Positions 1 to 41,281 of a stretch of DNA of 64,000 nt are shown here, in pieces. The DNA lies in NCBI GenBank assembly GCA_036493955.1, contig DASXOW010000042.1, positions 2,996 to 66,995 of the forward strand. Reading direction: 5' to 3'. The position numbers were made by a program, and so were the translations under genes. The DNA is from Gaiellaceae bacterium (GTDB taxonomy: Bacteria > Actinomycetota > Thermoleophilia > Gaiellales > Gaiellaceae). Position 1 is the first letter of the stretch. Each line of letters begins with the position of its first letter. Below the pieces are notes generated by a model, which saw only the letters and a program-made list of their open reading frames with translations, had not been told where the DNA came from and ran no database searches.

Positions 1-2
1 CA

Positions 3-458: not shown

Positions 459-495
459 CGGAAACCGTCGTGTTGCAGGCCGCTCGAGAGCCCCT

Positions 496-1116: not shown

Positions 1117-1162
1117 ATCAGGAACGATAACGACCGTCTATCGAATCGCGGGGCGGTCTCAA

Positions 1163-1360
1163 TCAGCTGTGCAGCGCCCGGCGGAGCGTCAGATAGAGCG
1201 TCCCGGAAACCGCGACCGGCATCAGCCACCAGCTCGGGACGTTGGTGGATGCGATCGCGGCCGTCGCCGCGATCGCAGCCACGACGCAGACGGCAGCGAT
1301 CCAGTCGTCCCCGACCACGAAGTCCCACCAGAAGAACCCGAACGCTTTGAGGCGCCTCAT
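1163..1360 (-). CDS. small membrane protein (65 aa)
   Basis: MRRLKAFGFFWWDFVVGDDW followed by two hydrophobic segments. Its ATG overlaps the stop of the upstream gene (ATGA), suggesting coupling. It is the C-terminal part of the 1163..2320 track ORF. Confidence 0.5.
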   Translation of the reverse strand: MRRLKAFGFFWWDFVVGDDWIAAVCVVAAIAATAAIASTNVPSWWLMPVAVSGTLYLTLRRALHS

Positions 1361-2109: not shown

Positions 2110-2264
2110 CAGCGAAGAATGCCCGGTGTGGCCAAGCGCGGTCGGATTGCGTCCGTCGGTCTACGCGACGCGGAAAAGCACGTCGACTGCCAGCAACGCC
2201 GCGAGGAGCCAGAGGAGTCGCGCGGCGCGCGGCAGCGAGAGAAAGCGCATCAACGCGCGGTGCA

Positions 2265-4006: not shown

Positions 4007-4018
4007 ACCAACCGAACC

Positions 4019-5416: not shown

Positions 5417-5422
5417 TGGAGC

Positions 5423-6121: not shown

Positions 6122-6162
6122 AGAGGCAGTCTGCTCTGGCGTTTCTGAGAGAAACCTGAGAG

Positions 6163-7017
6163 TTGCGCGAGAGCGACCGAAATTCGACGGCGTCGTGGCT
6201 ACCGTCCCTCCCCGTGGGAGTCGTGCGCACCCCCGCCGCGCTGAAGGTCCCAGCCCGGATCGCCGCAATCTTCTGGGCGATCAAGCTCCTCACCACGGCA
6301 TTCGGCGAGTCGACGTCGGACTACCTGGTCCACAACGTCAATCCGTACCTCGCTGTCATCGGCGGCTTCGTGGTCTTCATCATCGCGATGACGCTCCAAC
6401 TGCGAGCCGACCGATACATACCGTGGGTGTACTGGCTCGCGGTCGCGATGGTCGCCCTCTTCGGAACGATGGCCGCCGACGTCCTGCACGTCGAGTTCGG
6501 AGTCCCATACATCGCCTCGACCATCCTCTTCGCTTCTGCGCTGGTCGCCGTCTTCTGGCTGTGGTCGCGGGCGGAGCCCACGCTCTCAATCCACAGCATC
6601 ACGACCGAGCGGCGCGAGCTCTTTTACTGGGCCGCCGTGCTCGCAACGTTCGCGATGGGCACCGCGCTCGGCGACCTCGCCGCCTACACGCTGAACCTCG
6701 GTTTCCTCGCTGCCGGGATCGTGTTCGCCGTGCTCTTCGCGCTCCCAGGCCTCGCGTACGCCCGGTTCCGCGTCAACGCGGTGCTTGCATTCTGGAGCTC
6801 CTATGTCATGACGCGACCTCTAGGTGCTTCCTTCGCCGACTGGACCGGCAAGAGCCGACACGACGGCGGTATCGCCATCGGAGACGGGATCACAGCCTTC
6901 GTCCTCGCTGCCTTCATAGTCGCAGGCGTGGTCTATCTCACCGTCAGCGGCAGCGATCGGCTCGGTGAGCCCGGCCGGGGCACCCTCGACCCGGCTTTCG
7001 CAGACGACTTTCCCTGA
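6163..7017 (+). CDS. membrane protein with duplicated 4-TM module (COG4705-like)
   Basis: 284 aa with repeated segments (IFWAIKLLTTAFGESTSDYL and FYWAAVLATFAMGTALGDLAAY). The start is uncertain. Confidence 0.65.
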   Translation: MRESDRNSTASWLPSLPVGVVRTPAALKVPARIAAIFWAIKLLTTAFGESTSDYLVHNVNPYLAVIGGFVVFIIAMTLQLRADRYIPWVYWLAVAMVALFGTMAADVLHVEFGVPYIASTILFASALVAVFWLWSRAEPTLSIHSITTERRELFYWAAVLATFAMGTALGDLAAYTLNLGFLAAGIVFAVLFALPGLAYARFRVNAVLAFWSSYVMTRPLGASFADWTGKSRHDGGIAIGDGITAFVLAAFIVAGVVYLTVSGSDRLGEPGRGTLDPAFADDFP

Positions 7018-7027
7018 GTCGCGAGCG

Positions 7028-7225
7028 CTACGGCTTGAACTCGTCGTCGACGAGGCGATTCGGGTCGACCCCGCCGAGACGCTCCTCGACGCGCGCGTCC
7101 GCGGCCAGCCCTTCGACGCCTTCATCAACAATGTGCCGCTCGGACTCAGTCTCGACCTGCGCGTCCTCGGCGCGGTGGGCTGCAGCAGCGTCGCGGCGTC
7201 CCATCAGTTTTTTCCAAAAGCTCAT
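7028..7225 (-). CDS. small acidic hypothetical protein (65 aa)
   Basis: MSFWKKLMG... preceded on the minus strand by a strong Shine-Dalgarno (GGAGGAGG, read from 7232-7239), directly downstream of the HAD gene. Confidence 0.55.
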   Translation of the reverse strand: MSFWKKLMGRRDAAAAHRAEDAQVETESERHIVDEGVEGLAADARVEERLGGVDPNRLVDDEFKP

Positions 7226-7240
7226 TGCGTGTACCTCCTC

Positions 7241-8020
7241 CTACGTCAGCTCGTCGACGAGATCAGCGATTGAATCGACAATGCGTGACGGCCGGTACGG
7301 AAACCGCTCGGCCTGCTCCCGGGTCGTCGAACCGGTGAGTACGAGAACGGTATGCATTCCGGCTTCGAGCCCGCTGACCACGTCGGTGTCCATCCGGTCA
7401 CCGACCATCGCGGTCGTCTCTGAATGCGCTTCGATTGCATTCAGCGCCGAGCGCATCATCAACGGGTTCGGCTTACCGACGAAGTATGGCTCGACCCCGG
7501 TGGCGCGACTGATCAGCGCCGCGACCGAGCCGGTAGCGGGCAGTGGGCCTTCCGGCGTCGGCCCCGTCGCATCGGGGTTCGTCGCGATGAACCGAGAGCC
7601 ACGCGCGATCAAACGGATCGCTTGCGAGATTCGCTCGAAGCTGTATGTCCGCGTTTCGCCGAGAACGACGTAGTCGGGCGCGCGTTCGTTCACGGTGTAG
7701 CCCGCATCGTGGAGCGCGTTGGTCAACCCGGATTCCCCGATCACGAAAGCCGTGCCTCCCGGCCGCTGGTCGTCGAGGAAGCGTGCGGTGGCGAGCGCCG
7801 ATGTCCAGATCGCCTCCTCCGGCACCTCGAGGCCGGTCAACGCAAGCCGCGCGGAGAGATCGCGCGGGGTGTAAACCGAGTTGTTCGTCAGGACGAGAAA
7901 CGACCGTTCCAGCTCGCGGAGCCGGGCGATGAATTGATCCGCACCTGGGATCGCGTGCTCCTCGTGAACGAGCACGCCGTCCATGTCCACCAGCCAAGAC
8001 TGGATCTCACGCTTGCGCAC
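7241..8020 (-). CDS. HAD-IIA family hydrolase (NagD-like)
   Basis: DMDGVL motif I, LTNNS motif II, and the C-terminal GKP...GDRMDTD motifs. Confidence 0.85.
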   Translation of the reverse strand: MRKREIQSWLVDMDGVLVHEEHAIPGADQFIARLRELERSFLVLTNNSVYTPRDLSARLALTGLEVPEEAIWTSALATARFLDDQRPGGTAFVIGESGLTNALHDAGYTVNERAPDYVVLGETRTYSFERISQAIRLIARGSRFIATNPDATGPTPEGPLPATGSVAALISRATGVEPYFVGKPNPLMMRSALNAIEAHSETTAMVGDRMDTDVVSGLEAGMHTVLVLTGSTTREQAERFPYRPSRIVDSIADLVDELT

Positions 8021-8177
8021 GCCCAGATCCTCTCAGCTCAACGGTCGACCGCGACGTCCCGGCTGCTCACAGTCTCCGGACTTCAAGACGCACGCGGGCC
8101 CGGCTCCGCGCCCGCGCAGCCGGCAGTTAGTCGACGATCGCCCGAGGCGACCGTGCTGGAAGCTACCGTGCACGTTG

Positions 8178-9176
8178 ATGGCCGTCGCCGAAATCGATGC
8201 GCCCCGCTCATGGCGTGGTGTATTCGACCCGTATGCGATGCCCCGGCTCAAGCGGAGCCTCCTGGATCTCGCGACCTCGGTCATTCCATATCTCGTTCTG
8301 CTTGTCGCGATGTTCCTCGCGTTGCGCGTGTCCGTATGGCTCTCGCTCGCTCTCGTCGTGCCGACGGCGGGCTTCCTGATCCGCACGTTCATCGTCTTCC
8401 ACGACTGCACGCACGGATCGTTCTTTCGCTCACGGCGTGCGAACAATCTGCTCGGCGCGGCGACCGGGTTGCTTGTCTGGCTCCCATTCCGCGGGTGGCA
8501 GCACGAGCACGCTATCCATCACGCGACCGCCGGCGATCTCGATCGACGCGGCGTCGGCGACATCACGACTCTGACCGTCGCCGAATACCAGGCGCTCTCC
8601 TTCATACCGCGCATCGGCTACCGCCTGTTTCGAAACCCGGCAGTGATGTTCGGGCTCGGCTGGCTGCTCGTGCTCGTGCTCAAGCCTCGCTTTGTCTCCC
8701 GCGGCGCGCGTCCGCGCATTCGAAACAGCGTGCTTGGCACGAACGTCGTGCTCGCCGTCCTGGTTGCGGTGCTCTGTCTGACGGTCGGTTGGCGCAGTTA
8801 TCTCCTCGTCCAAGGCCCGGTCTTCGTCGTCGCCGGCGCGGTCGGGATCTGGCTGTTCTATGTGCAGCACCAATTCGAGGACACCTACTGGCAAGCGCAT
8901 GCCGATTGGCGGTACGACCATGCCGCGCTCGAAGGGAGCTCGTATCTGAAGCTGCCGCGCCTCCTTCAGTTCTTCACGGGCAACATCGGCTTCCACCATG
9001 TGCACCATCTCAGCGTCGGGATCCCGAACTACAACCTGCAGCAGGCTCATGAGAAGACCGACGGCCTGCAGGAAGTGCCGGAGTTGACGCTGCGAGACGC
9101 GTTGCGCGCGCCCCGCTTGAAGCTCTGGGACGAACGCGAAAAGCGACTCGTAACGTTCCGCGAAGCGCGCGGCTAG
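8178..9176 (+). CDS. membrane fatty acid desaturase
   Basis: Three histidine boxes (HDCTHG, HEHAIHH, HHVHH). Start taken at MAVAEID (ATG 8178) inside the 7983..9176 track ORF. Confidence 0.85.
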   Translation: MAVAEIDAPRSWRGVFDPYAMPRLKRSLLDLATSVIPYLVLLVAMFLALRVSVWLSLALVVPTAGFLIRTFIVFHDCTHGSFFRSRRANNLLGAATGLLVWLPFRGWQHEHAIHHATAGDLDRRGVGDITTLTVAEYQALSFIPRIGYRLFRNPAVMFGLGWLLVLVLKPRFVSRGARPRIRNSVLGTNVVLAVLVAVLCLTVGWRSYLLVQGPVFVVAGAVGIWLFYVQHQFEDTYWQAHADWRYDHAALEGSSYLKLPRLLQFFTGNIGFHHVHHLSVGIPNYNLQQAHEKTDGLQEVPELTLRDALRAPRLKLWDEREKRLVTFREARG

Positions 9177-9182
9177 GCGTCA

Positions 9183-10454
9183 ATGGAGCTCAAGCGTCGG
9201 CGTGTCGTGGTGACGGGCCTCGGCCTCGTCACCGCCCTCGGCAACTCCGTCGAGGAGTCCTGGTCCGCGCTCCTCGCCGGACGCGGAGGCACCGGGCCGA
9301 TCTCGAGGTTCGACGCGACCGATTTCCCGGTCAGGATCGCCTGTGAGGTAGACGGGCTCGAGGTGAGCGACTACCTCGACCGAAAGACGGCCCGCCGAAT
9401 GGACCGCTGTTCGCATCTGGTCGTCGCCGCCGCCCGACAAGCCGAAGCCGACGCGTCTCTGGACGGCAACGTGCTCGGCGAGCGCGCAGGAGTCGCGATC
9501 GGGAGCGCACTCGGCGGCGTCGCGTCGTTCGAGGACACCGTGCTGCAGGTCGCCCGCAGAGGGCCGGATCGAGCCGGCCCGTTCTCGATCGTGCAGACCC
9601 TCCCGAACCTTCCAGCCGGCTGGGTCTCGATCGAGCTCGGCACCCGCGGCCCACTCCTCGCGCAGAGCACGGCATGCGCCGCCTCGAACATGGCGCTCGG
9701 TGACGGACTGGACGCCATCCGTCTCGGGCGGGCCGACGTGATGTTCTGTGGGGGCACGGAGGCACCGGTCACCGCGACAGCCGTGGCCGCCTTTGCCGCG
9801 ATGCGCGCCCTCTCCGCGCGCAACGACGACCCGTCGACCGCATCACGGCCGTTCGACCGAGATCGCGACGGATTCGTGCTGGCCGAAGGCGCCGCAGTCA
9901 TCGTGCTCGAAGAGCTCGAGCATGCGCAAAGGCGCGGCGCGCGCATCTACGCGGAGCTGGCCGGCTACGGGATCTCCTCCGACGCTCACCACGTCTCCGA
10001 CCCCGACCCGGCCGGCGTCAACCCGGCGCGCGCGCTGAAGATGGCCTTCGCTGACGCAGGCATCGACGCGGCCGATGTCGGGTACGTCAACGCTCACGGA
10101 ACCTCCACCCCCGCAGGCGACAGAGCCGAGACCCGAGTCCTGAAACTCGCGCTCGGCGACAACGCGTCGTCCCGCACCGCGGTCTCGTCGACGAAAGGCG
10201 CGACCGGCCACACTCTCGGTGCCGCGGGCGCCGTCGAAGCCGCGTTCACCGTCCTCGCGCTCCAACGCGGGACACTCCCGCCGACGATCAACCAGTACGA
10301 GACCGATCCGGACTGCGACCTCGACTACGTCGCGAATCGCGCGCGTGAACGGCAGGTCGACGTCGCCGCGTCCAACTCGTTCGGCTTCGGTGGTCACAAC
10401 ACGACGATCGTGCTCCGCCGCTGGGAAACGGCGGCGCCGGCGTCCCTTACGTAA
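9183..10454 (+). CDS. fabF: beta-ketoacyl-ACP synthase II
   Basis: 423 aa. N-terminus RRVVVTGLGLVTALG, active-site Cys context STACAAS, HGTSTP and GHTLGAAG motifs. Confidence 0.9.
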   Translation: MELKRRRVVVTGLGLVTALGNSVEESWSALLAGRGGTGPISRFDATDFPVRIACEVDGLEVSDYLDRKTARRMDRCSHLVVAAARQAEADASLDGNVLGERAGVAIGSALGGVASFEDTVLQVARRGPDRAGPFSIVQTLPNLPAGWVSIELGTRGPLLAQSTACAASNMALGDGLDAIRLGRADVMFCGGTEAPVTATAVAAFAAMRALSARNDDPSTASRPFDRDRDGFVLAEGAAVIVLEELEHAQRRGARIYAELAGYGISSDAHHVSDPDPAGVNPARALKMAFADAGIDAADVGYVNAHGTSTPAGDRAETRVLKLALGDNASSRTAVSSTKGATGHTLGAAGAVEAAFTVLALQRGTLPPTINQYETDPDCDLDYVANRARERQVDVAASNSFGFGGHNTTIVLRRWETAAPASLT

Positions 10455-10553
10455 ACTTCCTTTGCGCCTTCCGTCGCCCTGTGATCCTCAGTGGCGGGCA
10501 GCGATCTCGACTTCCCTGGCGCGAGCAGCGCGCCGGTGACGAACGGAGGTTGC

Positions 10554-10736
10554 GTGGATCCGGAAGCGTCGGATCTCTCGAATCAGGTCAGGTGTGCGCG
10601 CTGCCGGCGCGCACCGCGTGACGACGCCGATTTCGTCGGCTGGGAGGCGCTCGACCAGGGCGCCGTCTGTCCCGGCTGCCTGACGATGCACGAAGTCGCG
10701 ATGCGCCATCGACGGGACGAGCCGGCCGCCGGTTGA
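10554..10736 (+). CDS. small zinc-ribbon protein (60 aa)
   Basis: CxxC-x21-CxxC (CARC...CPGC). GTG start 4-5 nt after GGAGG. TGATG overlap with the next ORF. Confidence 0.4.
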   Translation: MDPEASDLSNQVRCARCRRAPRDDADFVGWEALDQGAVCPGCLTMHEVAMRHRRDEPAAG

Positions 10737-11197
10737 TGGCCAGGTCCCGAGAGTTCCAGTACGAAGTTGAGCTGACGACCGGCAGTGGCCGGCCTCGGAG
10801 CTTTCGCTACGTCGTATTGCAGCGACTACCGGACGGCCCGCAACTCCTTCGCTACCACTCCGACTGGTTCGTCGTGGAGACGATCGAACACCCGAAGGCT
10901 GCAACCTCCCTCGGAACGATCGCGGGCGTCGAGGTCGCGGATCTGATGCGCAACGACATGCGCGAGATAATCGCGACGGGCGAGCACTGGGACGAGGCGG
11001 CGCGTTCGCTCGCAAGGGACCGGACACGGTCGCTCCGGGGTCATTTCGTGAGGTGGTTGCTGGTGCTGCGCGACCCGCCGCTCCTGCGGATGGTCCGAGA
11101 CGATGGGACAGCGCTGCAGGAGATCCCGCTGCAAACCGACGTCGATCAGCCCGTGTATCAGGCGCTGCTCGAGGTGTCTCTCACCGCGGGCCGGTAG
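10733..11197 (+). CDS. hypothetical protein (154 aa)
   Basis: Coding-like composition and coupled to the upstream zinc-ribbon ORF. I recognise no family. Confidence 0.5.
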   Translation: MMARSREFQYEVELTTGSGRPRSFRYVVLQRLPDGPQLLRYHSDWFVVETIEHPKAATSLGTIAGVEVADLMRNDMREIIATGEHWDEAARSLARDRTRSLRGHFVRWLLVLRDPPLLRMVRDDGTALQEIPLQTDVDQPVYQALLEVSLTAGR

Positions 11198-11209
11198 GCG
11201 CCGTGGGTG

Positions 11210-11452
11210 TCACCACCGGCGCGGCTCAGCCGCGAGGGAGGTCACCACGCCGTGCTGATCGACCGAGATCACAAGCCGTTCGTCCGCCCGCCCCGGCGCC
11301 ACCCATCGCAGGACGAAGTGAAGGCGATGGCGGCGCACGATCACTGCCTGAATCCCGCTGCGCGTCTCGACCCGGAAGCCTTGACCGGCGCGGCGCGCCA
11401 GGTACGCGTCCAGCGCGGCCAACCGTGCGTCGGCAGCTTGCCCGATCGTCAT
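11210..11452 (-). CDS. hypothetical protein (80 aa)
   Basis: MTIGQAADARLAALDAYL... Its ATG overlaps the stop of the upstream ORF (ATGA). Last gene of a 4-gene minus-strand operon. Confidence 0.45.
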   Translation of the reverse strand: MTIGQAADARLAALDAYLARRAGQGFRVETRSGIQAVIVRRHRLHFVLRWVAPGRADERLVISVDQHGVVTSLAAEPRRW

Positions 11453-11838
11453 CGCTCTAGCGCTCGACCCAGTTCGCCGCCGACGAGCACGCTGATCGCG
11501 CACTGGCCGACGTGTACGACGAGCTGACCGTCGCTCTGCCAGAAGCCGCGCTCGAACTCGTCCGGTCGAATGACGAAGCCACTCTGGCGTGAGCCGACGT
11601 GGAAGAACAGCGTCTCGATCGCTTTGTCGTCCGCGCGGAGCAGCACCTCCTGGAGACGCTCGTCGAGCTCACCCCGCTCGAGCCGGCCGGCGACGATTCC
11701 GGAGATGAACGGCGCGCCGTTCGCGCCGGAGAACAGGACGAGTACCGGTCGGCCGATCAAGCTCAGCAGCGCCTCGAGCGTCTGCTCGTACCCGAGGTCC
11801 GCGACCCCCTCGAGCTCGCCGCCGCCGAACGTCGTCAC
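11449..11838 (-). CDS. hypothetical protein (129 aa)
   Basis: Coding-like ORF, overlap-coupled at both ends. I recognise no family. Confidence 0.55.
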   Translation of the reverse strand: MTTFGGGELEGVADLGYEQTLEALLSLIGRPVLVLFSGANGAPFISGIVAGRLERGELDERLQEVLLRADDKAIETLFFHVGSRQSGFVIRPDEFERGFWQSDGQLVVHVGQCAISVLVGGELGRALER

Positions 11839-12053
11839 CCAGTGTCGGCTTCTGCGTCGGCTCCTGCGTCTGCGTCTACATCTACGTCGGTGTCTGCGTC
11901 CACGTCCGCGCCGACATCCGCGTCTACTTCGGCGACCGGCTGCTCGCCGGCGTTGCGCCGCGCTTCCTTCTTGGCCTGTTTCATCTCACGCTTCTCGCGC
12001 ATCGCCTGCTCGCGCGCGCGCTTGAGGACGGACTGCGGGCTCCGTCTTCCCAT
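11835..12053 (-). CDS. small protein with a basic N-terminal helix and an acidic D-A/D-V repeat tail (72 aa)
   Basis: KRAREQAMREKREMKQAKKEARR followed by VDADVGADVDADTDVDVDADAGADAEAD. TGATG coupling to the upstream CSD-like gene. Confidence 0.5.
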   Translation of the reverse strand: MGRRSPQSVLKRAREQAMREKREMKQAKKEARRNAGEQPVAEVDADVGADVDADTDVDVDADAGADAEADTG

Positions 12054-12295
12054 CAGCGACGTCCCCGCGAACGCGCACGCCGCTCGGCGAACAGCGGTAC
12101 CACCGCGACGTTCACGGCCCGCGCCTCGACGCCGTCTGCAGCGCGATCAAAGCTCACGCGCATGCCTCGGCAGCCGTCCCCGAAGACCTGCCCGAGGGCA
12201 AACCCTTCTTCGTCGACACGCAGACGCTCGTCTTCATCTGTGCGGATGAAGCCGTGTTGCTTGCTTGGGTTGAACCAAAGCATCGTTCCTTCCAC
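12053..12295 (-). CDS. atypical cold-shock-domain-like protein (80 aa)
   Basis: MLWFNPSKQHGFIRTDEDERL resembles the CSD RNP1 region (WFN..KGFGFI). Confidence 0.6.
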   Translation of the reverse strand: MEGTMLWFNPSKQHGFIRTDEDERLRVDEEGFALGQVFGDGCRGMRVSFDRAADGVEARAVNVAVVPLFAERRARSRGRR

Positions 12296-12318
12296 TGCCG
12301 CTCCTTTCGGACGGCGCA

Positions 12319-12343
12319 GGGCCGCGAGGTAACCCCGCGGCCC
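12319..12343 (-). terminator. hairpin downstream of cspA
   Basis: GGGCCGCG (12319-12326) pairs with CGCGGCCC (12336-12343), 9 nt after the cspA stop on the minus strand. No clear U-tract. Confidence 0.45.
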
Positions 12344-12351
12344 GCACGCGA

Positions 12352-12555
12352 CTAGACGGCGACGACGCTCTTCGCCTCGGGGCCCTTTGCCCCGTCGACC
12401 GCTTCGAACTGAACCTGTGCACCCTCCGCGAGCGACTTGAAGCCCTCGCCGGAGATCGACGAGTGGTGGACGAACACGTCCTTGCCACCGTCAGCGGGGG
12501 TGATGAACCCATACCCCTTCGCATCGTTGAACCACTTCACGGTTCCGGTTGCCAT
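12352..12555 (-). CDS. cspA: cold shock protein
   Basis: 67 aa [20 protein letters not shown]...VFVHHSSI with canonical RNP1/RNP2. Strong SD (GGGGGAGGTG) upstream. Confidence 0.95.
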
Positions 12556-12680
12556 ATACAAACACCTCCCCCACCACGAAAGAACGGGCAGGGAAGCGCA
12601 CACCGCGCAACCTGTACTCGCTCAGCTAGTGCCGGAACCGTAGCAGGCGCGGGAGCGCGGCACCGCTCCAGGCCTGGGAA
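12556..12680 (-). promoter_or_regulatory. long 5' leader / promoter region of cspA
   Basis: About 125 nt of non-coding sequence between cspA and the upstream gene's stop. Long structured leaders are typical of csp genes. No promoter boxes were confidently read. Confidence 0.35.
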
Positions 12681-13325
12681 TCACGCGCCCAACACGCCGT
12701 CTGGAGCGGCTGGATCCTCGGGCGGCAGGTCGCGCGACCACTTCGGATGGTGACGCTCCGCCCAGGCCGCGTCGACCCAGCCGCGCGTCATGCCGTTCAA
12801 CGCGTGGCGGGTGCTCGGGTGGATGACGGCGAGGTAGAGATGCCCGAGAAACAGCGCGAGCGAGATCTGAGTGAGCCAGTCGTGGATCAGGATCGTCTGC
12901 GCAAAGCGAAACGTCGTGTCGCGCTCGCCGAGCCAAAGGAGTGTGCCGGTGACCGCGAAGAGCAGCGCGAACGCAGCCGTGACCGCGGCATTGATCTTCT
13001 GCCCCGCGTTGAACCGCCCCTGTGGAGCCGGTCGGCGCCGCAGCCAGTCGCGGTCGTCCTGGTCGAACACGTCGATGTCATGCAGCGTCCTTCGGAGCGA
13101 CCGGCGATCGCCGGCGAGGACGACGGCGACGATCGCCGCCGCCCAGGCCACGGCCGTGTACACGTGGATGTCCTTCAGGAGTGGGCGCCTGCCGACGAGC
13201 TCCGCGAGGCTCGGAAGATAGAGCGCGAGGCCGGTCGCGAGCAGGACGAGAAACGCCGTCGCGTGCACCCAGTGCAGCGTGCGCTCGGTCCGCGTGAAGC
13301 GAAGCAGCCGCCGCTTCTCAGCCAT
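12681..13325 (-). CDS. membrane b-type cytochrome (MsrQ/FdnI-like partner of the Mo-enzyme)
   Basis: 214 aa, 4-5 TM with conserved His residues (TLHWVHA, IHDWL, GHLYLAVIH). 8-nt overlap with the upstream Mo-oxidoreductase gene. Confidence 0.75.
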   Translation of the reverse strand: MAEKRRLLRFTRTERTLHWVHATAFLVLLATGLALYLPSLAELVGRRPLLKDIHVYTAVAWAAAIVAVVLAGDRRSLRRTLHDIDVFDQDDRDWLRRRPAPQGRFNAGQKINAAVTAAFALLFAVTGTLLWLGERDTTFRFAQTILIHDWLTQISLALFLGHLYLAVIHPSTRHALNGMTRGWVDAAWAERHHPKWSRDLPPEDPAAPDGVLGA

Positions 13326-34963: not shown

Positions 34964-36214
34964 GTGCTCGCGCCGCCGCCAGCCCTCCGTCACCCGGACT
35001 TCCGCCGCCTGTGGACGTCGATCCTCTGCTCGGGGATAGCGCTGCAGATGGCGCAGGTCGCGATCGGGTGGCAGGTCTACTCGATTCGGCACAACCCGTT
35101 CGACCTGGGCCTGATCGGCCTCGCCGAGTTCGCGCCGGTGCCGTTGCTCGCGCTACCCGCGGGCCAACTGGCAGACCGGTTGCCGCGTGTGGCCGTCGTC
35201 GTGGTGACGAGCATCGGCGACGCAGTCGTGGCGGGGCTCTTGCTCGTGGTCACGCTTCACGGAGCGCACGAGCTCTGGCAGTTCGTCGCGCTCGCGGCAC
35301 TGACCGGTGCGATCAGCGCGCTCGGCAGCCCTGCGCAGCGGTCGCTCGTGCCGGAGCTCGTTCCCGCCGAGCTGCTGACCGCAGCGCTCGCCTTGCGCTC
35401 GATCGCGGGCCAGGCAGCGACGATTGGCGGGCCGACGGTCGGGGGGCTCCTGTTCTCGCTCCGGCCGGAGGCCGTTTACGCCCTCGCGGCAGTGATGCTG
35501 ATCGCCTCGGCCATCGTGCTCCTGCCCGTGACGCGACCCGACACGCCGCCGATGGGCGAGCCTGCGACGGTGCAAACGCTGTTCGCCGGCGTGCGCTTCA
35601 TTCGCGGGACGCCGGTGATTCTCGGCGCGATTACGCTCGACCTCTTCGCCGTGTTGTTCGGCGGGGCAGTCGCATTGTTGCCGCTTTACGCGAAGTCGAT
35701 CCTCCACACAGGCCCGTTCGGGCTCGGCGTGCTCCGAAGCATGGTCGCGGTCGGGGCGCTCGTCGCCGGCTTCAGGCTTGCGCGCCGCCCGCTCGGCGGT
35801 CGTGCCGGCCGCACGCTGCTGCTCGTGGTCGGGACATTCGGCGCGAGCATGGTCGTCTTCGGCCTCTCGCGCTCGATCGTGCTGTCGGCCGTCGCGCTCG
35901 CAGTGAGTGGCTTCGCGGACATGTACTCGATGAACATCCGGTCGACGACCGTCGCGCTCGCGACGCCCAACTCGCTGCGCGGACGCGTGAACGCGGTCGA
36001 GAACGTCTTCATCGGTGCGTCGAACGAGCTCGGCGCGTTCGAGTCGGGCGCGGCGGCGGCGTTGCTCGGAGCGACACCTGCGGTCGTTGCGGGCGGCGCG
36101 CTCACGATCGTTATTGCGCTCGTCTGGCCGCGGATCTTCCCGCAACTGGCTCGGGTCGACCGGCTCGACGCCGTTCGACCTGAGGCCGAGACGGCCACGG
36201 AAGTCGGCGGCTAA
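34964..36214 (+). CDS. MFS transporter
   Basis: 416 aa, 12 TM, with a PAGQLADRLPR motif in loop 2-3. Confidence 0.8.
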   Translation: MLAPPPALRHPDFRRLWTSILCSGIALQMAQVAIGWQVYSIRHNPFDLGLIGLAEFAPVPLLALPAGQLADRLPRVAVVVVTSIGDAVVAGLLLVVTLHGAHELWQFVALAALTGAISALGSPAQRSLVPELVPAELLTAALALRSIAGQAATIGGPTVGGLLFSLRPEAVYALAAVMLIASAIVLLPVTRPDTPPMGEPATVQTLFAGVRFIRGTPVILGAITLDLFAVLFGGAVALLPLYAKSILHTGPFGLGVLRSMVAVGALVAGFRLARRPLGGRAGRTLLLVVGTFGASMVVFGLSRSIVLSAVALAVSGFADMYSMNIRSTTVALATPNSLRGRVNAVENVFIGASNELGAFESGAAAALLGATPAVVAGGALTIVIALVWPRIFPQLARVDRLDAVRPEAETATEVGG

Positions 36215-36346
36215 GACGCGGCTCCGCGGAACCTAGAGCGTGTTGGCGTCATTGCAAAGCCTTTTAGCCACCTCCGCTCCCGTTGTCCCTACAGATAACA
36301 GAGCGGTCGCGGCGGACGCCTGAGCCACGCGGCTAGTGTCTCCGCG

Positions 36347-36784
36347 ATGCCGAACTGCACGTTCTGCGACTTGGACGGGTTTCGGCGGGACAGCGTCGTG
36401 CTCCGCGAGAACGAACTGGCTTTATTCGGAAACCTCGAAGACGGTGGAGCGTTGAGCGGCTCCGGAGTAATCGTGCCGAAGGCTCACAAGGAGACTGTGT
36501 TCGACCTGACTGCCGACGAAATCACCGCGACGTTCGAACTCCTGCGCGACGTGCGGCCGTTACTGGAGGCGCGGTACAACCCGGACGGCTTCAACATCGG
36601 CTGGAACTGCTTCGGGGCAGCGGGGCAAGAAGTTCCCCACGCGCACATGCACGTTCTTCTTCGCTTCAGTGATGAGCCGAGGGCGGGATACGGGATCCGT
36701 TGGTGGCTGCGTCAGCCTGAGAACCGAAGGCCCGATCCCACTGCTCCAGGAACCGGGAGACGCGACTACAAGGTTTCGTACTAG
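36347..36784 (+). CDS. HIT (histidine triad) family protein
   Basis: N-terminal CTFC and histidine triad HAHMHVL. Lower-GC codon usage than the flanking genes. Confidence 0.8.
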   Translation: MPNCTFCDLDGFRRDSVVLRENELALFGNLEDGGALSGSGVIVPKAHKETVFDLTADEITATFELLRDVRPLLEARYNPDGFNIGWNCFGAAGQEVPHAHMHVLLRFSDEPRAGYGIRWWLRQPENRRPDPTAPGTGRRDYKVSY

Positions 36785-36818
36785 AGACCTGGCATTCCCG
36801 ACGCGAGTAGCTCGTGCG

Positions 36819-37286
36819 CTAGCTCTGGATTCGGCCGGGGCGAAGCGGTCGTGCGTGGGTGCTGATTTTCTCGAGTGCTCGCGTTAGGGCCTTGACGTCT
36901 GCCTGGGAAAGGTGCTTGGCGAAGTGGCGTTCGATTCCGTCGCGGTGATGGGCGCGGGCGCGTTCGAGTGTCGCGCTGCCTTTGGTGGTGGGAACGACGA
37001 GGATCGTGCGGCGGTCCTCCTCGGGGCGGACGCGACGGATGAGGCCCGCTTCTTCCATCCGGTCGACGACTCGGGTGAAGCCGCTTTTGCTGTAGAGAAT
37101 CCGGTCGGCGAGCAGGTTCATCGAGATCCCGTCGGGGGATTCCTCGAGGTGGACGAGGACGTCGTACCAACGTTGCGAGATGCCCGCATCCCGTTCGAGC
37201 TCAGCGTCGAGGATGTCGAGGAGCGCGAGGGCGCTCTCGAAGAACAGCCGCCAAGCGCGCAACCGCTCGCTCGACGGACTTGACAA
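36819..37286 (-). CDS. MarR family transcriptional regulator
   Basis: Winged-HTH core (ISMNLLADRILYSKSGFTRVVDRMEEAGLIRRVRPEEDRRTILV). TTG start inferred; the track ORF extends to 37433 over the cupin remnant. Confidence 0.7.
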   Translation of the reverse strand: MSSPSSERLRAWRLFFESALALLDILDAELERDAGISQRWYDVLVHLEESPDGISMNLLADRILYSKSGFTRVVDRMEEAGLIRRVRPEEDRRTILVVPTTKGSATLERARAHHRDGIERHFAKHLSQADVKALTRALEKISTHARPLRPGRIQS

Positions 37287-37298
37287 CGTTGATTCGAC

Positions 37299-37574
37299 TT
37301 GGGCACGCGGATGCAGCTGAAGGCCGGCTCCTTCGCGTTCGGACCGAAGGGGGTCCCGCACACCTTCTACGCGGAAGCGGGCACCGCGAAAGCGCTCGTC
37401 GGTTTCGCACCGATGCAGTTCGAGGGATTCCAACGGGACGTCGGACAGCCGGCACTCGAGCGCATCCTGCCGCCGCCCGCTGACGGTCCCCCGGACGTCG
37501 CGCGGCTCACCGAGATCGGAGCGCGCAACGGGCTAATCGTTCTTGGCCCCCCAGGTCCGCCACCCGGCTACTAG
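37299..37574 (+). pseudogene. 5'-truncated cupin-domain gene remnant
   Basis: Encodes only the C-terminal half of a cupin (LKAGSFAFGPKGVPHTFYAE...GLIVLGPP). An in-frame stop lies at 37290-37292 and the MarR start sits 12 nt upstream, leaving no room for the N-terminal half. Confidence 0.5.
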
Positions 37575-37604
37575 CCACCGCAATCCAAAATCATCACCGG
37601 TCGG

Positions 37605-37634
37605 CTGCGCCAGTGTTCCGGAATGACGCCAGAG
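37605..37634 (+). repeat. array repeat A
   Basis: CTGCGCCAGTGTTCCGGAATGACGCCAGAG, read directly. Confidence 0.9.
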
Positions 37635-37643
37635 CGAGCAGAG

Positions 37644-37844
37644 CTAACCGGCGGCTTGGTCGTCCTCGGACTCAATGGTCTCGATCACATCTGCGGCCCG
37701 AAGGCGGAGCAGGTCGGCAGCTACCTGCTCGGACGCCACGATTTCATCCCCGGCCCGAGCCGATGTCGGGGATTCATCAACGGATGAAGTGAACGTGCCG
37801 ACCATCCGCCCCGGCCGATTCCTGAGCCTAAAGCGGCGCGGCAT
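37644..37844 (-). CDS. cassette 1 ORF, hypothetical acidic protein (66 aa)
   Basis: MPRRFRLRNRPGRMVGTF...ETIESEDDQAAG is the most protein-like reading of this interval. Both strand and start are uncertain. Confidence 0.35.
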   Translation of the reverse strand: MPRRFRLRNRPGRMVGTFTSSVDESPTSARAGDEIVASEQVAADLLRLRAADVIETIESEDDQAAG

Positions 37845-37871
37845 GACCGCCACATCGTAGGCCACCTTCGA

Positions 37872-37901
37872 CTGCGCCAGTGTTCCGGAATGACGCCAGA
37901 G
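37872..37901 (+). repeat. array repeat B
   Basis: Identical 30-mer to repeat A. Confidence 0.9.
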
Positions 37902-37919
37902 CGGCGCTAGGCTGAGATC

Positions 37920-38162
37920 GTGGCGACCGGGATCGGTATTGCGGCTGCCGGTGTGGTCATGACGTTGGCGGCCCTCGCGCTCCTTACGAACTATCGCCGG
38001 TTCAGTGACAAGGCGGCGATGCTCGGCGGCTCGCTGACGTTCATGGTCGGCGGCGGCGGCGCCCTTCGCCGACCACGACGAGCCTCCGCAACCTGGGGAC
38101 TCCTGCTGCTCGTACTCGGGGTCGTGTGGGTCGTCGGCGGTCTCGTGTTCGCGTTGCGATAG
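37920..38162 (+). CDS. cassette 2 ORF, small membrane protein (80 aa)
   Basis: GTG start. Hydrophobic segments GIGIAAAGVVMTLAALALL and WGLLLLVLGVVWVVGGLVFAL. Confidence 0.5.
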   Translation: MATGIGIAAAGVVMTLAALALLTNYRRFSDKAAMLGGSLTFMVGGGGALRRPRRASATWGLLLLVLGVVWVVGGLVFALR

Positions 38163-38174
38163 ACCGTTTCTTGC

Positions 38175-38201
38175 CTGCGCCGTTCCGGAATGACGCCAGA
38201 G
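38175..38201 (+). repeat. array repeat C (3-nt shorter variant)
   Basis: CTGCGCCGTTCCGGAATGACGCCAGAG, which lacks the AGT of the consensus. Confidence 0.9.
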
Positions 38202-38226
38202 GTGGAGGTTGCTTGCCCGGGATCGT

Positions 38227-38376
38227 CTACGTGTGACGCAGGAACGTGAAGTAGAAGGCCGCGAACACGAGGACGATGCCAACGTTGACCGCTAGCCGCG
38301 CCCAGACATGGCCACGGAAGAAAAGGACGTCCACGGCGACGACGATGGCCACCATCGCCACTACGTACAGCGCCAT
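38227..38376 (-). CDS. cassette 3 ORF, 49-aa two-TM hydrophobic peptide (below the ORF-track size cutoff)
   Basis: Hand translation gives MALYVVAMVAIVVAVDVLFFRGHVWARLAVNVGIVLVFAAFYFTFLRHT. GGGAAGG lies about 9 nt upstream of the ATG on the minus strand. Confidence 0.4.
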   Translation of the reverse strand: MALYVVAMVAIVVAVDVLFFRGHVWARLAVNVGIVLVFAAFYFTFLRHT

Positions 38377-38431
38377 GGTTGCCGACCTTCCCACGAAGCC
38401 ACCGTAGCGGTCGGAGACACCCGGGACTCGG

Positions 38432-38461
38432 CTGCGCCAGCGTTCCGGAATGACGCCAGAG
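38432..38461 (+). repeat. array repeat D
   Basis: CTGCGCCAGCGTTCCGGAATGACGCCAGAG (one substitution). Confidence 0.9.
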
Positions 38462-38481
38462 CGATAACCTCGGCGGGACGG

Positions 38482-38877
38482 ATGCGCGGCTACAACGGAG
38501 ACCTTTCGGCGACAACGGAAGGCGTGTCAATCGAGCGAGGGCTGAAAGGAGCGCTCGTTCGGAAGCGGTCACCCCGGAGGGAGTCGATCCCTCGGAGAGA
38601 CATGCGAGAGGTTCTGTTTCAGCCAAGCACTGGTCGCTGGGGTTTGCCTGGTTACGTGCTGGTTGTCGATCAGCGTGACGTGCCTGCGGACTTCGTAGCG
38701 CGTGTACGCGACAGCCGTGCGGTTACATTCCTCGGGCGCTCAGAAGAGTGGCGTCGATTCGCCGAGGAATTGGCGGAGAACTACGACGTGCCGTTTCGAG
38801 AATTTCCGGCTGAGACTCGGTCGGGACGCGAGATCGCGAAAGAGCGGTCGCGGGGCAGCAGCGACCGTCGTAGCTAG
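38482..38877 (+). CDS. cassette 4 ORF, hypothetical protein (131 aa)
   Basis: ATG 38482 inside the 38308 track ORF, which reads through repeat D. I cannot assign a family with confidence. Confidence 0.5.
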   Translation: MRGYNGDLSATTEGVSIERGLKGALVRKRSPRRESIPRRDMREVLFQPSTGRWGLPGYVLVVDQRDVPADFVARVRDSRAVTFLGRSEEWRRFAEELAENYDVPFREFPAETRSGREIAKERSRGSSDRRS

Positions 38878-38885
38878 CCGCTCGA

Positions 38886-38916
38886 CTGCGCCAGTGTTCA
38901 GGAATGACGCCTGAAC
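38886..38916 (+). repeat. array repeat E (perfect-stem variant)
   Basis: CTGCGCCAGTGTTCAGGAATGACGCCTGAAC. GTTCAGG and CCTGAAC are perfectly complementary. Confidence 0.9.
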
Positions 38917-38945
38917 AGGTTTCCGCCTCGCTCTAAGATCGTTAC

Positions 38946-39434
38946 GTGGACTGGCGCCAGGTTGAGTTGCGGCGCGGGGCAGTCGAAGTCCGTGCCTCCA
39001 GCGAGACCGACGGCGACGCGATAGGAACATCCCCTCTCGATCCAGTGATAGGGAAATTCTTCGGCCGGGCGTTGAGCGGTCCGCCATTTGGCACCGAAGA
39101 CCCAGATGCGCCAGCGTTCACCGTGCTTTTCGACGATCGGCCCGTGGGTCGGATCTGGTTCCGACCCGGTGCTCGTCCATACGAAGTGGGCTACTACGTA
39201 CGCACCGAACAGTGGGGTCGAGGCATCGCCTCCACTGCACTTTCGCTCGTCTCCGAATGGTTTCTCGGACGCGTGGACGATGAAATCGTCCTGTTCACCC
39301 ACCCGGAAAACATCGGATCTCAGAAAGTCGCCGAACGAGCAGCGTTCGTGGCTGCAGGCTCAGTCGCGCGCTATGCAGAGTTCAAGGACGGCACCACGGC
39401 GGCTCTACGGTTCGTCCGACGCGTGCAGAGCTAG
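38946..39434 (+). CDS. cassette 5 ORF, GNAT family N-acetyltransferase
   Basis: 162 aa with acetyl-CoA motif-A-like QWGRGIASTAL and a RimJ/RimL-like C-terminus (HPENIGSQKVAERAAF). Confidence 0.8.
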   Translation: MDWRQVELRRGAVEVRASSETDGDAIGTSPLDPVIGKFFGRALSGPPFGTEDPDAPAFTVLFDDRPVGRIWFRPGARPYEVGYYVRTEQWGRGIASTALSLVSEWFLGRVDDEIVLFTHPENIGSQKVAERAAFVAAGSVARYAEFKDGTTAALRFVRRVQS

Positions 39435-39446
39435 TCGTGAGAGTCG

Positions 39447-39477
39447 CTTGCGGCAGCGTTCCCGGATGAGGCCAGAG
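39447..39477 (+). repeat. array repeat F (degenerate)
   Basis: CTTGCGGCAGCGTTCCCGGATGAGGCCAGAG, about 24 of 31 positions matching the consensus. Confidence 0.7.
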
Positions 39478-39508
39478 AGCGAGCCGCAGGCGTTGAAATA
39501 CTTGTGCG

Positions 39509-40012
39509 GTGACGAGCGGACCCCGGGTGGATGACTGCCCGTTCTGCTCAGTCGTAGCGGGTAGCGAGACCGACTACAACGCACAGACAGATGTCATCCA
39601 TCGCGACCAGCTAACGACTGCCTTCGTTTGCCCGAAATGGTGGCTGGCCGCCCCTGCGCACGTCCTCGTAGTACCCAACAGCCATTACGAAAACGTGTAT
39701 GCGATTCCCGACGACGAGCTTGCGGCGGTCTACGCGACAGCGAAGAAGATCGCGACTGCGATGCGTTCTGCCTATTACTGCGAAGGGACTTCGATGCGTC
39801 AGCACAATGAGCCGGGCGGAGGTCAAGATGTATGGCATTTCCACGTGCACGTCTTCCCTCGACGTCGTGATGACCGGCTCTACGAGAGGAACGCCGAGAC
39901 GCGCATGACAGCTGCCTCCGAGCGCGCACCGTACGCAGAGCGTCTCCGCTTCGCGTTGCAGAATCGGAAGAAGGTCTCGCCCTCTGCGCCAGTGTTCCGG
40001 AATGACGCCTGA
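39509..40012 (+). CDS. cassette 6 ORF, HIT family protein
   Basis: CPFC near the N-terminus and histidine triad HFHVHVF. The last ~9 codons and the TGA stop lie inside repeat G. An alternative GTG start lies at 39527. Confidence 0.8.
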   Translation: MTSGPRVDDCPFCSVVAGSETDYNAQTDVIHRDQLTTAFVCPKWWLAAPAHVLVVPNSHYENVYAIPDDELAAVYATAKKIATAMRSAYYCEGTSMRQHNEPGGGQDVWHFHVHVFPRRRDDRLYERNAETRMTAASERAPYAERLRFALQNRKKVSPSAPVFRNDA

Positions 40013-40014
40013 AT
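39984..40014 (+). repeat. array repeat G
   Basis: CTGCGCCAGTGTTCCGGAATGACGCCTGAAT. Confidence 0.9.
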
Positions 40015-40109
40015 GGTTCCGCTGCAGAGGATCAGGCAAGCGATGATTTGCGTGTCCCAATCGAGTCTCAGAGGCGAGCACTCATCCGTCGCGAGCGAAG
40101 GAGCATCCG

Positions 40110-40637
40110 ATGACGAGTAACGCAGGCTCACGTGACCGCATCCTCGGCAGCCTGAGATCGAAGGACGGCGAAGGTATCGCCCGCATGGAGGAACGGTTCG
40201 ACGCGAGCATCGACGACCTATGGTCGGCCCTTACGCAACCTCGCCGACTTGCTGCCTGGTATGGCGAAGTGAAGGGTGACCTTCATGTTGGAGGCGAGTT
40301 TCACGTGCGCCATGCCGGAGGGAAACGCGCAGGACGCGTCGATGCCTGCGAGCCGCTGCAGCACCTACGAGTCACGTTGCGCGACCCCGAGGCGAAGCCG
40401 GGCCAGCCGGAGCAGGTCGTCACGGAGGCTTGGCTAAGCGCGGACGACGGGCAAACCGTCTTGGTGGTCGAAACCAGCGGCCTGCCGCTGCCCCTCCTTG
40501 CGGCCTACGGGGTGGGAGTGCAGATCCACGTCGAAAATCTCGCAGATCACATCTCCGGTCGCGAGGCTGGCAAGGAAGAAGAACGCTGGGAGAAGCTCTT
40601 CCCGACCTACGAAGCCTTGGCGGCCGAGGTCAGCTAG
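40110..40637 (+). CDS. cassette 7 ORF, SRPBCC superfamily (AHSA1/START-like) protein
   Basis: 175 aa with IDDLWSALTQPRRLAAWYG typical of AHSA1-type SRPBCC proteins. GAAGGAG SD 6 nt upstream. Confidence 0.75.
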   Translation: MTSNAGSRDRILGSLRSKDGEGIARMEERFDASIDDLWSALTQPRRLAAWYGEVKGDLHVGGEFHVRHAGGKRAGRVDACEPLQHLRVTLRDPEAKPGQPEQVVTEAWLSADDGQTVLVVETSGLPLPLLAAYGVGVQIHVENLADHISGREAGKEEERWEKLFPTYEALAAEVS

Positions 40638-40644
40638 GCATCGA

Positions 40645-40658
40645 CTGCGCCAGCGTCC
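40645..40658 (+). repeat. array repeat H (truncated; 5' half only)
   Basis: CTGCGCCAGCGTCC, preceded by the TCGA seen before repeats B and E. The hairpin half is missing. Confidence 0.6.
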
Positions 40659-40687
40659 TCTCGCCCGACGCACAGCGTCGTCGAAGC

Positions 40688-41281
40688 TCAGCCGCCCGTC
40701 TTCGAGAAGTGCTGCCAGTCGGGCGAGCCGGCCCAGCGTCCACCCCAGAGCCAACCGACCGACGCGAAGGCACGCACGAGCACGCCGCCCGCGACGGCCA
40801 TCCCGCGGCGGTAGCGCGTGCGCTCGAGGAACGCTCGCCCTGCGGGCGGCAGCACTCGACCGCCTTCCAGGTACGGGTTCTCGACGGTGTTCACGTCGAT
40901 CGCCTCGCCGTAGGCGTGCACCGACCAGCGCCTCGGGCCGGGCGCGACGGCATAGCGGCAGTTGAACGCGGAGGTGTTGTCGGCCGCCATCGACCGATCG
41001 TCGCTCCCTGCGTAGCGCGCGGTCGGCTGCATGCGGTTGATCGGGAAACGCGCGACGTACAGTCGCCGGAAGACGAGCTCGACCTCCCGCGTCACGCGAC
41101 GGTTGACGACAAGCGTGCCCGTGTGCGCGCGACCGTCGAACCCGACGTAGCTGACCGACACGTTCCGCAGATCGGCGGGGCCGACCGGACAGCCCGCGTG
41201 CCACGACCGCCCGAGCTGTACGGCGGTGACAGTTGTGACGTGCGCGTGGAAGGGCGGCAGCGCGGGCATCCTTACCGGCAT
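40688..41281 (-). CDS. M15-family (VanY/D-Ala-D-Ala carboxypeptidase-like) metallopeptidase, apparently lacking a signal peptide
   Basis: SMAADNTSAFNCR and SVHAYGEAIDVN (zinc-ligand H..D context). The start is uncertain (M at 41281 or 41269; the track ORF runs to 41467). Confidence 0.65.
   Translation of the reverse strand: MPVRMPALPPFHAHVTTVTAVQLGRSWHAGCPVGPADLRNVSVSYVGFDGRAHTGTLVVNRRVTREVELVFRRLYVARFPINRMQPTARYAGSDDRSMAADNTSAFNCRYAVAPGPRRWSVHAYGEAIDVNTVENPYLEGGRVLPPAGRAFLERTRYRRGMAVAGGVLVRAFASVGWLWGGRWAGSPDWQHFSKTGG

Follow-up and report, generated by a model that had tools for sequence, protein, structure and literature searches.

Can genes be gathered into cassette arrays without the enzyme and the sites of an integron? 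The question is raised by a 64,000-nucleotide stretch of a Gaiellaceae genome (contig DASXOW010000042.1, positions 2,996 to 66,995; hereafter the window), in which short direct repeats divide about 3 kb into seven intervals, each holding a single small gene. To our knowledge, integrons are the only well-understood general system for the capture of gene cassettes. A preliminary description of the window, made from its sequence, had proposed an array like those of integrons or of CALINs (clusters of attC sites lacking integron-integrases), built on a non-canonical site. Comparative data from other genomes support this proposal and point to site-specific recombination as its probable basis. With a probability of roughly 0.7, positions 37600-40670 are an array of seven mobile cassettes on the chromosome, each with a single gene, and form part of a cassette system of Thermoleophilia (Gaiellales-like Actinomycetota) that has not been described before. 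On the best reading of the data, this system works like an integron or CALIN, yet is not one and uses a different site.

The ordinary form of the site is present in the window in seven copies, all on the + strand, and is followed by an eighth copy of a different type (Table 1). A repeat finder delimited seven copies of a 37-nt unit at spacings of 267, 300, 260, 454, 562, and 536 bp, so that the co-oriented direct repeats of the preliminary description, and their spacings, are confirmed. The unit length of 30 nt given there is too short, as the conserved unit spans about 37 nt (cTCGsCTGsGCCAGyGTTCCGGAATGACGCCwGAGcg). Matches to the 30-mer with 0-3 mismatches begin at 37605, 37872, 38432, 38886, and 39984, all on the + strand against a chance expectation of 0, and a search with the 18-nt core added copies at 38182 and 39458 (+ strand). 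R1, a sequence-only covariance model built from alignment A1 (140 sites, all from genomes other than that of the window), recovered six copies in the 64-kb window at E = 1e-7 to 1e-14, with no other significant match; neither half of the site was found again elsewhere in the 64 kb. The 30-mer, core, half-site, and R1 searches thus agree with the earlier statement that the other ~61 kb hold no further copy. Also borne out were the degeneracy of the sixth copy, which R1 matched only in part, and the position of the HIT gene’s stop codon inside the repeat, with the open reading frame (ORF) ending at 40012 within the seventh site. Among the cassette genes, the assignments to the GNAT, HIT, and SRPBCC families were upheld by Pfam, and the four small ORFs gave no family match. 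One of these, the 131-aa ORF, does not appear in the gene calls of every assembly (it is present in L230 and not in L001; loci are numbered here with the prefix L).

The site is also found in many other genomes and builds comparable arrays in numerous uncultured Thermoleophilia from soil. A scan of GTDB, with one genome per species (596 Gb) and the 18-mer GTTCCGGAATGACGCCWG as query, returned at least 120 stretches; the counts of loci below refer to the 120 listed. An estimated 35 or so chance matches are expected in 596 Gb, which fits the single low-scoring matches seen in non-actinobacterial records. Every locus that holds at least two sites bears the label Gaiellaceae, Gaiellales, Thermoleophilia, Solirubrobacteraceae, Thermoleophilaceae, “Actinomycetes,” or “Actinomycetota,” except for a contig from Microthrixaceae and a 5.6-kb contig assigned to Gemmatimonadaceae by binning. 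The latter (L101, DATLXE010000022.1) contains a four-site array with a generic tyrosine recombinase gene 1.7 kb upstream, in divergent orientation, and could represent a binning error or a transfer outside the Actinomycetota. No real match to the site was obtained in viral contigs, PLSDB plasmids, or phage genomes.

A position-weight scan of these stretches located at least 349 sites, and neighbouring sites in the listed stretches point the same way in 223 cases and opposite ways in 6. The median spacing is 732 bp (interquartile range 513-1305 bp), and at least 53 loci hold 3-10 sites within 8 kb. Arrays lie on two to four separate contigs in several metagenome-assembled genomes and were seen in assemblies from JGI, ENA, Logan, and GTDB, the longest of the contigs concerned reaching 1.5 Mb. 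On contig CAVPST010000003.1, co-oriented sites occupy two stretches 8 kb apart (L025, 312-320 kb, and L086, 328-336 kb), which suggests a single array region of at least 24 kb. Inspection of the arrays for a gradient of site decay revealed no consistent trend. The cassette genes of these loci encode accessory enzymes, including GNAT, HIT, SRPBCC, cupin, RibD_C, GFA, YCII, and S51 peptidase proteins. According to a crude ORF caller, genes are co-oriented with the site in 93 intervals and opposite to it in 77, and a given gene family tends to hold one orientation to the site (119 members versus 21).

Arrays end in a recognisable way. The copy at 40640-40670 continues, after the left part of the site, with TCCTCTCGCCCGA in place of TTCCGGAATGACGCC and so has the form ...CTGCGCCAGCG-TCCTCTCGCCCGA. 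This eighth copy, previously described as truncated, is instead a distinct terminal variant (consensus CnCTCGCCTGGGCGAGCGTCCTCTCGCCCGAnC, alignment A2) that other genomes likewise carry at the 3' ends of their arrays. The 120 stretches hold 29 occurrences of it, as opposed to ~0.45 in shuffled sequence, and 23 of the 29 share the orientation of the ordinary sites and come after all of them. One more, the 24th, ends a minor second array in L120 that lies tail to tail with the main array; the two arrays of this locus (375-1040, +, and 1265-7552, -) each possess a terminal variant of their own (1017+ and 1287-), about 250 bp apart. Beyond the terminal variant lie unrelated core genes with a high G+C content at third codon positions (GC3), often convergent on the array, such as PurE/PurD-like and ABC transporter genes or, in the window, an M15 peptidase gene. 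The variant reads GGGCGAG-CGTCCT-CTCGCCC, that is, 7-bp inverted arms around a 6-bp spacer, a shape that may be likened to the core site of a tyrosine recombinase, though only as a resemblance. In the window, its right part also pairs with the 3' end of the M15 coding sequence in a 17-nt inverted repeat (40660-40676 and 40711-40727; 82% complementary).

The units between sites recur in different genomes and in different company. All-against-all blastn of the loci detected many segments of 0.6-1.3 kb with 90-99% identity from one species representative to another, and 40% of the ends of the high-identity matches lie no more than 25 nt from a site, compared with 3.5% for random positions. Cassettes with 94-99% identity are found in separate species next to unrelated neighbours, and homology between genomes ends within the site. 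For example, L010 and L050, which are different species representatives, have a 1151-bp cassette in common at 99.3% identity with both flanks unrelated; the next site is an ordinary one in one array and the terminal variant in the other. Another cassette is common to L037, L115, and (twice) L127, and L020 and L090 have 1038 bp in common at 96.9%. In L026, cassettes X and Y are adjacent, and in L080 they are arranged as X-Z-Y, where the 450-bp Z lies between two sites and Y retains its peculiar site variant. These two arrays thus differ by a single unit that is bounded at the site, a polymorphism that the preliminary description had associated with cassettes. Homologues of the window’s SRPBCC protein (83-84% aa identity) stand beside other neighbours in the L219 array and in L215, where the sites are degenerate and a HIT gene is adjacent. 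More distant SRPBCC homologues (~65% identity) in long contigs have no sites close by and are uninformative. In L217 (1702-4686), a homologue with 78% aa identity is directly followed by an IS4-like DDE transposase gene and a Phage_integrase gene, with no site copies detected. The alternative considered at the outset, an invariant block syntenic in all relatives, is not what was found, as the closest relatives lack the island, and homologous units, bounded by sites, sit beside different neighbours in further arrays.

The position of the presumed exchange was estimated from 13 pairs of sites that share only the upstream flank and 11 that share only the downstream flank, a small and partly non-independent sample. 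In the former, identity persists up to site positions 4-8 and is at background thereafter, its loss falling at positions 5-9; in the latter, it stays at background as far as position 8 and is higher from about position 9 on, the gain in these pairs setting in from about position 6-10. Most breakpoints lie within CTCGCC^TGGGCC, the weakly conserved left edge of the site, and at least 8 of about 14 informative pairs, read by eye, break within one 6-nt window (P = 4e-4 under uniform placement). This clustering argues for site-specific exchange, since a homologous crossover should favour the best-conserved stretch. The exchange is probably enzymatic as well as site-specific, and presumably passes through circular intermediates. 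Because the breakpoints cluster at the left edge, about 31 nt of the site would travel with the DNA to its right. The window’s five plus-strand ORFs begin 16-94 nt downstream of a site, and the attC-like position 3' of the ORFs put forward earlier does not hold: most of the site moves with the rightward DNA and so stands 5' of these five genes. A crossover at GTT^CC, which alternative left halves of the site and the terminal variant had suggested, was rejected because those halves are the right ends of IS110 insertion sequences and the breakpoints lie further left.

At the level of the chromosome, the array forms part of an inserted island of 4.4 kb. A metagenome scan with the M15 peptidase yielded 80 related loci with 473 kb of orthologous regions, none of which contains a site (every match had E > 0.01). 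Among these relatives, the closest are L136-L138, whose M15 and MFS proteins are 86-89% and 86-91% identical (aa) to those of the window, and the gene order argC-YkuD-M15 / MFS-protease-ZIP is kept, with M15 and MFS adjoining and their ends overlapping. Since the two genes abut there, ~36215-40687 is extra DNA in the window lineage, and the island is an insertion relative to close relatives. Its G+C content is 0.633, compared with 0.697 and 0.712 in the flanks, in agreement with the lower value noted before. The extent first proposed is correct for the seven cassettes and needs revision on the left, where the island begins at about 36215 and includes HIT, MarR, and cupin-like genes (36347..37574) that are likewise missing from relatives. 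Weak site remnants at 36315-36327 (R1 E = 0.51) and ~36787-36815 (by eye) were noted in this part, and the three genes may be older cassettes with decayed sites. A search for lone terminal sites in the relatives gave two chance-like matches only, both within an MFS gene. The window itself matches a 27-kb JGI soil-metagenome contig.

Other features of the region touch the site system less directly. In L135 (1075-1955), itself among the closest relatives, a three-gene csp cluster (a CspA-like gene and two small ORFs) forms a 0.9-kb insert exactly at the MFS/M15 junction, and a homologous cluster is located in the window at 11835-12603, ~24 kb from that junction. The MFS/M15 junction seems to be a rearrangement hot spot independent of the site system. 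Over positions ~1-13000, which are devoid of site copies, the window shows a G+C content of 0.64-0.69 per kb and a GC3 of 0.71-0.87, both below mid-window values, and five small ORFs (72-129 aa) form a run at 11210-12603.

Table 1. Sites, cassette genes, and flanking genes of the array region (window coordinates; PWM, position-weight matrix score).
Feature	Position	Strand	Basis or remark
MFS transporter, left flanking core gene	34964..36214	+	ORF call, kept in relatives
Inserted island between stop codons of convergent MFS and M15 genes	36215..40687	.	Absent from relatives
HIT gene, left part of island	36347-36784	+	Pfam
MarR gene, left part of island	36819-37262	-	Pfam
Cupin-like ORF, left part of island	37311-37574	+	Pfam
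S1, first intact site, ordinary type	37600..37636	+	R1 E = 1.4e-14
Cassette 1 ORF, 66 aa (53 aa in JGI call), acidic C-terminus	37644..37844	-	No family match
S2, ordinary type	37867..37903	+	R1 E = 9.8e-14
Cassette 2 ORF, 80 aa, hydrophobic	37920..38162	+	No family match
S3, ordinary type, 3-nt deletion in left part	38170..38203	+	R1 E = 1.2e-7
Cassette 3 ORF, 49-55 aa, hydrophobic	38227..38394	-	No family match
S4, ordinary type	38427..38463	+	R1 E = 7.6e-14
Cassette 4 ORF, 131 aa	38482..38877	+	No family match
S5, ordinary type, ends CCTGAA	38881..38917	+	R1 E = 4.1e-12
Cassette 5, GNAT acetyltransferase	38946..39434	+	Pfam PF13302, PF00583
S6, degenerate	39443..39479	+	3 mismatches in 18-nt core; PWM 22.8; partial R1 match, E = 1.5
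Cassette 6, HIT-family protein	39527..40012	+	Pfam PF01230; JGI 161 aa; ORF list start 39509
S7, ordinary type, includes HIT ORF stop codon	39979..40015	+	R1 E = 5.3e-12
Cassette 7, SRPBCC/AHSA1-like protein	40110..40637	+	Pfam PF08327
Terminal site variant ATCGACTGCGCCAGCG-TCCTCTCGCCCGACG	40640..40670	+	Alignment A2; 17 nt from M15 stop codon
M15 peptidase, right flanking core gene, convergent on array	40688..41269	-	Kept in relatives

How such arrays might arise can be outlined as follows. Each cassette has ~31 nt of conserved site, TGGGCCAGTGTTCCGGAATGACGCCTGAGCG, at one end and the short CTCGCC at the other, and the full 37-nt site would be created when the two ends join in the circularised cassette. 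A trans-acting recombinase would exchange DNA within CTCGCC^TGGGCCAG, allowing cassettes to be inserted, excised, and swapped at any site, so that arrays of co-oriented ordinary sites would result. The array would be closed, beside core genes, by one special site, CTCGCC^TGGGCGAGCGTCCTCTCGCCyGAG. Read on the opposite strand, this terminal site would mark the array start in the position of attI, and each site would be found at the end of its cassette, with a few nt lying beyond the crossover, as in the geometry of an integron cassette.

The enzyme was sought with jackhmmer, using XerD and resolvase probes, and with NCBIfam models on the few hits. The preliminary description had suggested looking for recombinases near other copies of the repeat; no linked family emerged in the 120 listed loci, and only IS110 elements were encountered, inserted in the site. 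Two families of these elements (Pfam PF01548, PF02371) occupy the site in 10 of the listed loci and are not present in the window. They insert at GTT^CC in a fixed orientation, as read from both junctions for the first family (...CCAGTGTT / IS / ...GAGTT / CCGGAATG) and from the right junction only for the second. Because this insertion point differs from the cassette breakpoints, IS110 was rejected as a simple explanation of cassette recombination, and its elements are better regarded as parasites of the site than as its engine. IS1111 elements similarly target attC.

Elements of the first family, ~1.25 kb long with a DEDD transposase, lie within an ordinary site (...CCAGTGTT / GCTCCTATGTCAA...GATGACATTGAGTT / CCGGAATG) in L029 (1168-2471), L033 (4061-5324), L088 (3166-4410), and L117 (2034-3300), and further in L091, L099, L116, and, as a fragment, L111, always in the same orientation to the site. 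A second, unrelated IS110 element (L052, 1886-3600; L073, 6866-8000) has its right end, ...CTCCATATGAGT, at the same site position. In L034 (~4946) and L044 (~2557), a third common alternative left half, ...CAGACGGGAC..CACACTCACA, is joined to GTTCCGGAATGACGCC with no obvious transposase ORF upstream; it may be another inserted element.

Several observations weigh against the interpretation as a mobile cassette system. No tyrosine, serine, or IS110 recombinase was detectable in six-frame ORFs of the window, as had been stated for integrases and other recombinases before, and tyrosine or serine recombinases occur in only 4 of the 120 listed loci. The tyrosine recombinases of three of these are unrelated or generic and far below every family cut-off, scoring 41-72 bits on integron-integrase models with cut-offs of 265-435 (the best score among the listed loci is 72 bits, against a cut-off of 265), and the fourth locus has a small serine recombinase. 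ORF clustering across the 120 loci gave nothing recurrent, and neither the regions that precede first sites nor those that follow terminal sites share a conserved gene or sequence. No circular intermediates were seen, a few breakpoints fall at site positions 12-16 so that not all are at one place, and a terminal-type site is not present at the relatives’ empty MFS/M15 junction. Within the window organism’s own population, gene order is identical in all contigs, with no strain polymorphism. Gene families are split about 14 to 16 between co-oriented and opposite to the site, a ratio near 50:50 that is unlike that of integrons.

Part of this evidence would suit a host repeat akin to repetitive extragenic palindromic elements (REPs), one that is targeted by IS110 and piles up in flexible islands, its shuffling a by-product of RecA-dependent homologous recombination. 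There is no linked recombinase, some breakpoints lie elsewhere in the site, and two IS110-family elements insert precisely into it, as the IS110-family members ISPpu9 and ISPpu10 do in the REPs of Pseudomonas putida (preprint 10.1101/2025.01.17.633520). However, the site is non-palindromic and does not fold (consensus, z = 0.27 to 0.45; with window flanks, z = -0.03 to -1.6; no better than shuffles), and its partial dyad, CTCGCC-TG-GGCSAG, shows no covariation. Nor is it scattered in the manner of a REP, a possibility raised in the preliminary description: it is absent from the remaining 61 kb of the window and from the 473 kb of core regions from 80 relatives, and elsewhere it forms arrays of uniform orientation (223 versus 6) that end in a conserved terminal variant. 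Most breakpoints, moreover, fall at the weakly conserved left edge (positions 5-9) and not in the best-conserved stretch. A REP or a bacterial interspersed mosaic element (BIME) was rejected on the fold, covariation, copy distribution, and orientation, and the broader REP-like explanation is unlikely. If anything slightly more doubtful is a reading of the units as non-autonomous transposons of one gene each, with a long conserved left end and the short right end CTCGCC, a trans-acting transposase inserting new copies beside CTCGCC, head to tail. The asymmetric conservation around the breakpoint (~31 nt versus ~7 nt), the co-oriented head-to-tail arrays, the CTCGCC kept on the left of the terminal variant, and the lack of an integrase in cis are all consistent with it, and the present data hardly separate it from cassette exchange. 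Yet no transposase family recurs near arrays except IS110, which inserts at GTT^CC, and the ends are without the hairpins that HUH Y1 transposases need.

The site might also be a regulatory element of accessory genes (an operator, promoter, terminator, or RNA-processing site) with no part in DNA rearrangement. Its location 16-94 nt upstream of five plus-strand ORFs in the window would suit such a role, as would the 8-bp palindrome TTCCGGAA and the partial dyad within it, but consensus searches found no sigma-70-like promoter or intrinsic terminator in 36000-41000, Rfam gave no match on 34-44 kb, and there is no stable fold. The sites keep one orientation whereas the genes face both ways (though with one direction per family), homology between genomes ends inside the site, and arrays close with a special terminal variant. 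A purely regulatory role is thus quite improbable. Least credible of all is the view that the array is a genuine integron or CALIN whose attC sites have diverged strongly. The array of small cassettes, the integron-like gene content, and the lower G+C content are what one would expect of it; yet the 37-nt site has neither RYYYAAC nor GTTRRRY boxes (GTTCCGG does not fit GTTRRRY) and no hairpin, consistent with the earlier remark that it is shorter than an attC and lacks such ends. Hairpin, attC, and terminator readings were rejected together, given folds that match shuffles, no consensus terminators, and no covariation. A CRISPR array, with repeats of 24-50 nt and non-coding spacers of like length, was rejected because the intervals (260-562 bp in the window, 0.3-2 kb elsewhere) hold ORFs with Pfam domains. 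A true integron is further contradicted by the lack of a tyrosine recombinase in the window, by the low integron-integrase scores elsewhere (72 bits at best versus 265), and by the host, as Actinobacteria have been reported to be without complete integrons (PMC9024848), in line with the preliminary description, which had called integrons essentially unreported in high-GC Actinomycetota.

A cassette system distinct from integrons therefore remains the preferred explanation. A search of the literature found nothing on the motif or on integron-like cassette arrays in Thermoleophilia or Actinomycetota, and the locus represents an array of gene cassettes whose site is new and whose enzyme is presumably different. 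The odds lean slightly towards a further proposition, namely that Thermoleophilia own a second, independently evolved integron-like system with 37-bp sites of a double-strand type, a dedicated array-end site, and a trans-acting recombinase unlike that of integrons, which captures and reshuffles one-gene cassettes at several chromosomal positions in each genome and transfers them across species. If so, a cassette system with an unrelated site would exist in an abundant, almost uncultured class of soil bacteria, and cassette-based genome plasticity would have evolved more than once. Part of the flexible genome of Gaiellales would be explained, and a new recombination site would be at hand, implying a new recombinase specificity to search for and use. 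The site model also offers a simple handle on the cassette pool of these organisms, which could be amplified or mined from metagenomes in the manner of attC-based cassette PCR.

Among known systems, REPs and BIMEs resemble the present site as short, conserved intergenic repeats that are specific, orientation-fixed targets of IS110-family elements. REPs are palindromic and dispersed genome-wide in both orientations, whereas the site described here is non-palindromic, is restricted to co-oriented arrays, and delimits mobile units. The pdif modules of Acinetobacter plasmids are Xer-dependent, with 28-bp sites of an 11-6-11 XerC/XerD architecture that alternate in orientation around the modules. 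Here as there, short conserved sites bound small gene modules that recur in different replicons, with no dedicated recombinase in cis and a host enzyme presumed; the sites of the present arrays differ in being 37 nt long, all direct, chromosomal, and accompanied by a terminal variant. The ordinary site has no 11-6-11 dyad or recognisable dif-like arms, and the terminal variant has 7-bp inverted arms around 6 bp.

Integrons are defined by IntI, a tyrosine recombinase with an IntI-specific insertion, and by attC sites of 57-141 nt, whose imperfect inverted repeats, R''-L''...L'-R' (RYYYAAC ... GTTRRRY), fold as single strands. The array studied here is not an integron because both defining features fail: the 37-nt site has no R/L boxes and no fold in place of the imperfect attC hairpin, and no IntI is found beside the special site. 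In integrons, most cassette ORFs point the same way and share one promoter, at attI, for their expression, whereas gene orientation here is close to 50:50; several arrays per genome lie beside unrelated core genes, and the host phylum is Actinomycetota. In both systems, however, small and mostly one-gene cassettes lie between co-oriented sites and are common to genomes in different contexts, and the breakpoint is near one end of the site, a few nt remaining with the neighbouring cassette. Both have a distinct site at one array end, here in an attI-like position, an accessory gene content (GNAT, SRPBCC, cupin, and proteins of no known function), and sites that are targeted by IS110/IS1111-type elements. 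Functionally, the integron or CALIN is thus the closest known system to these arrays.

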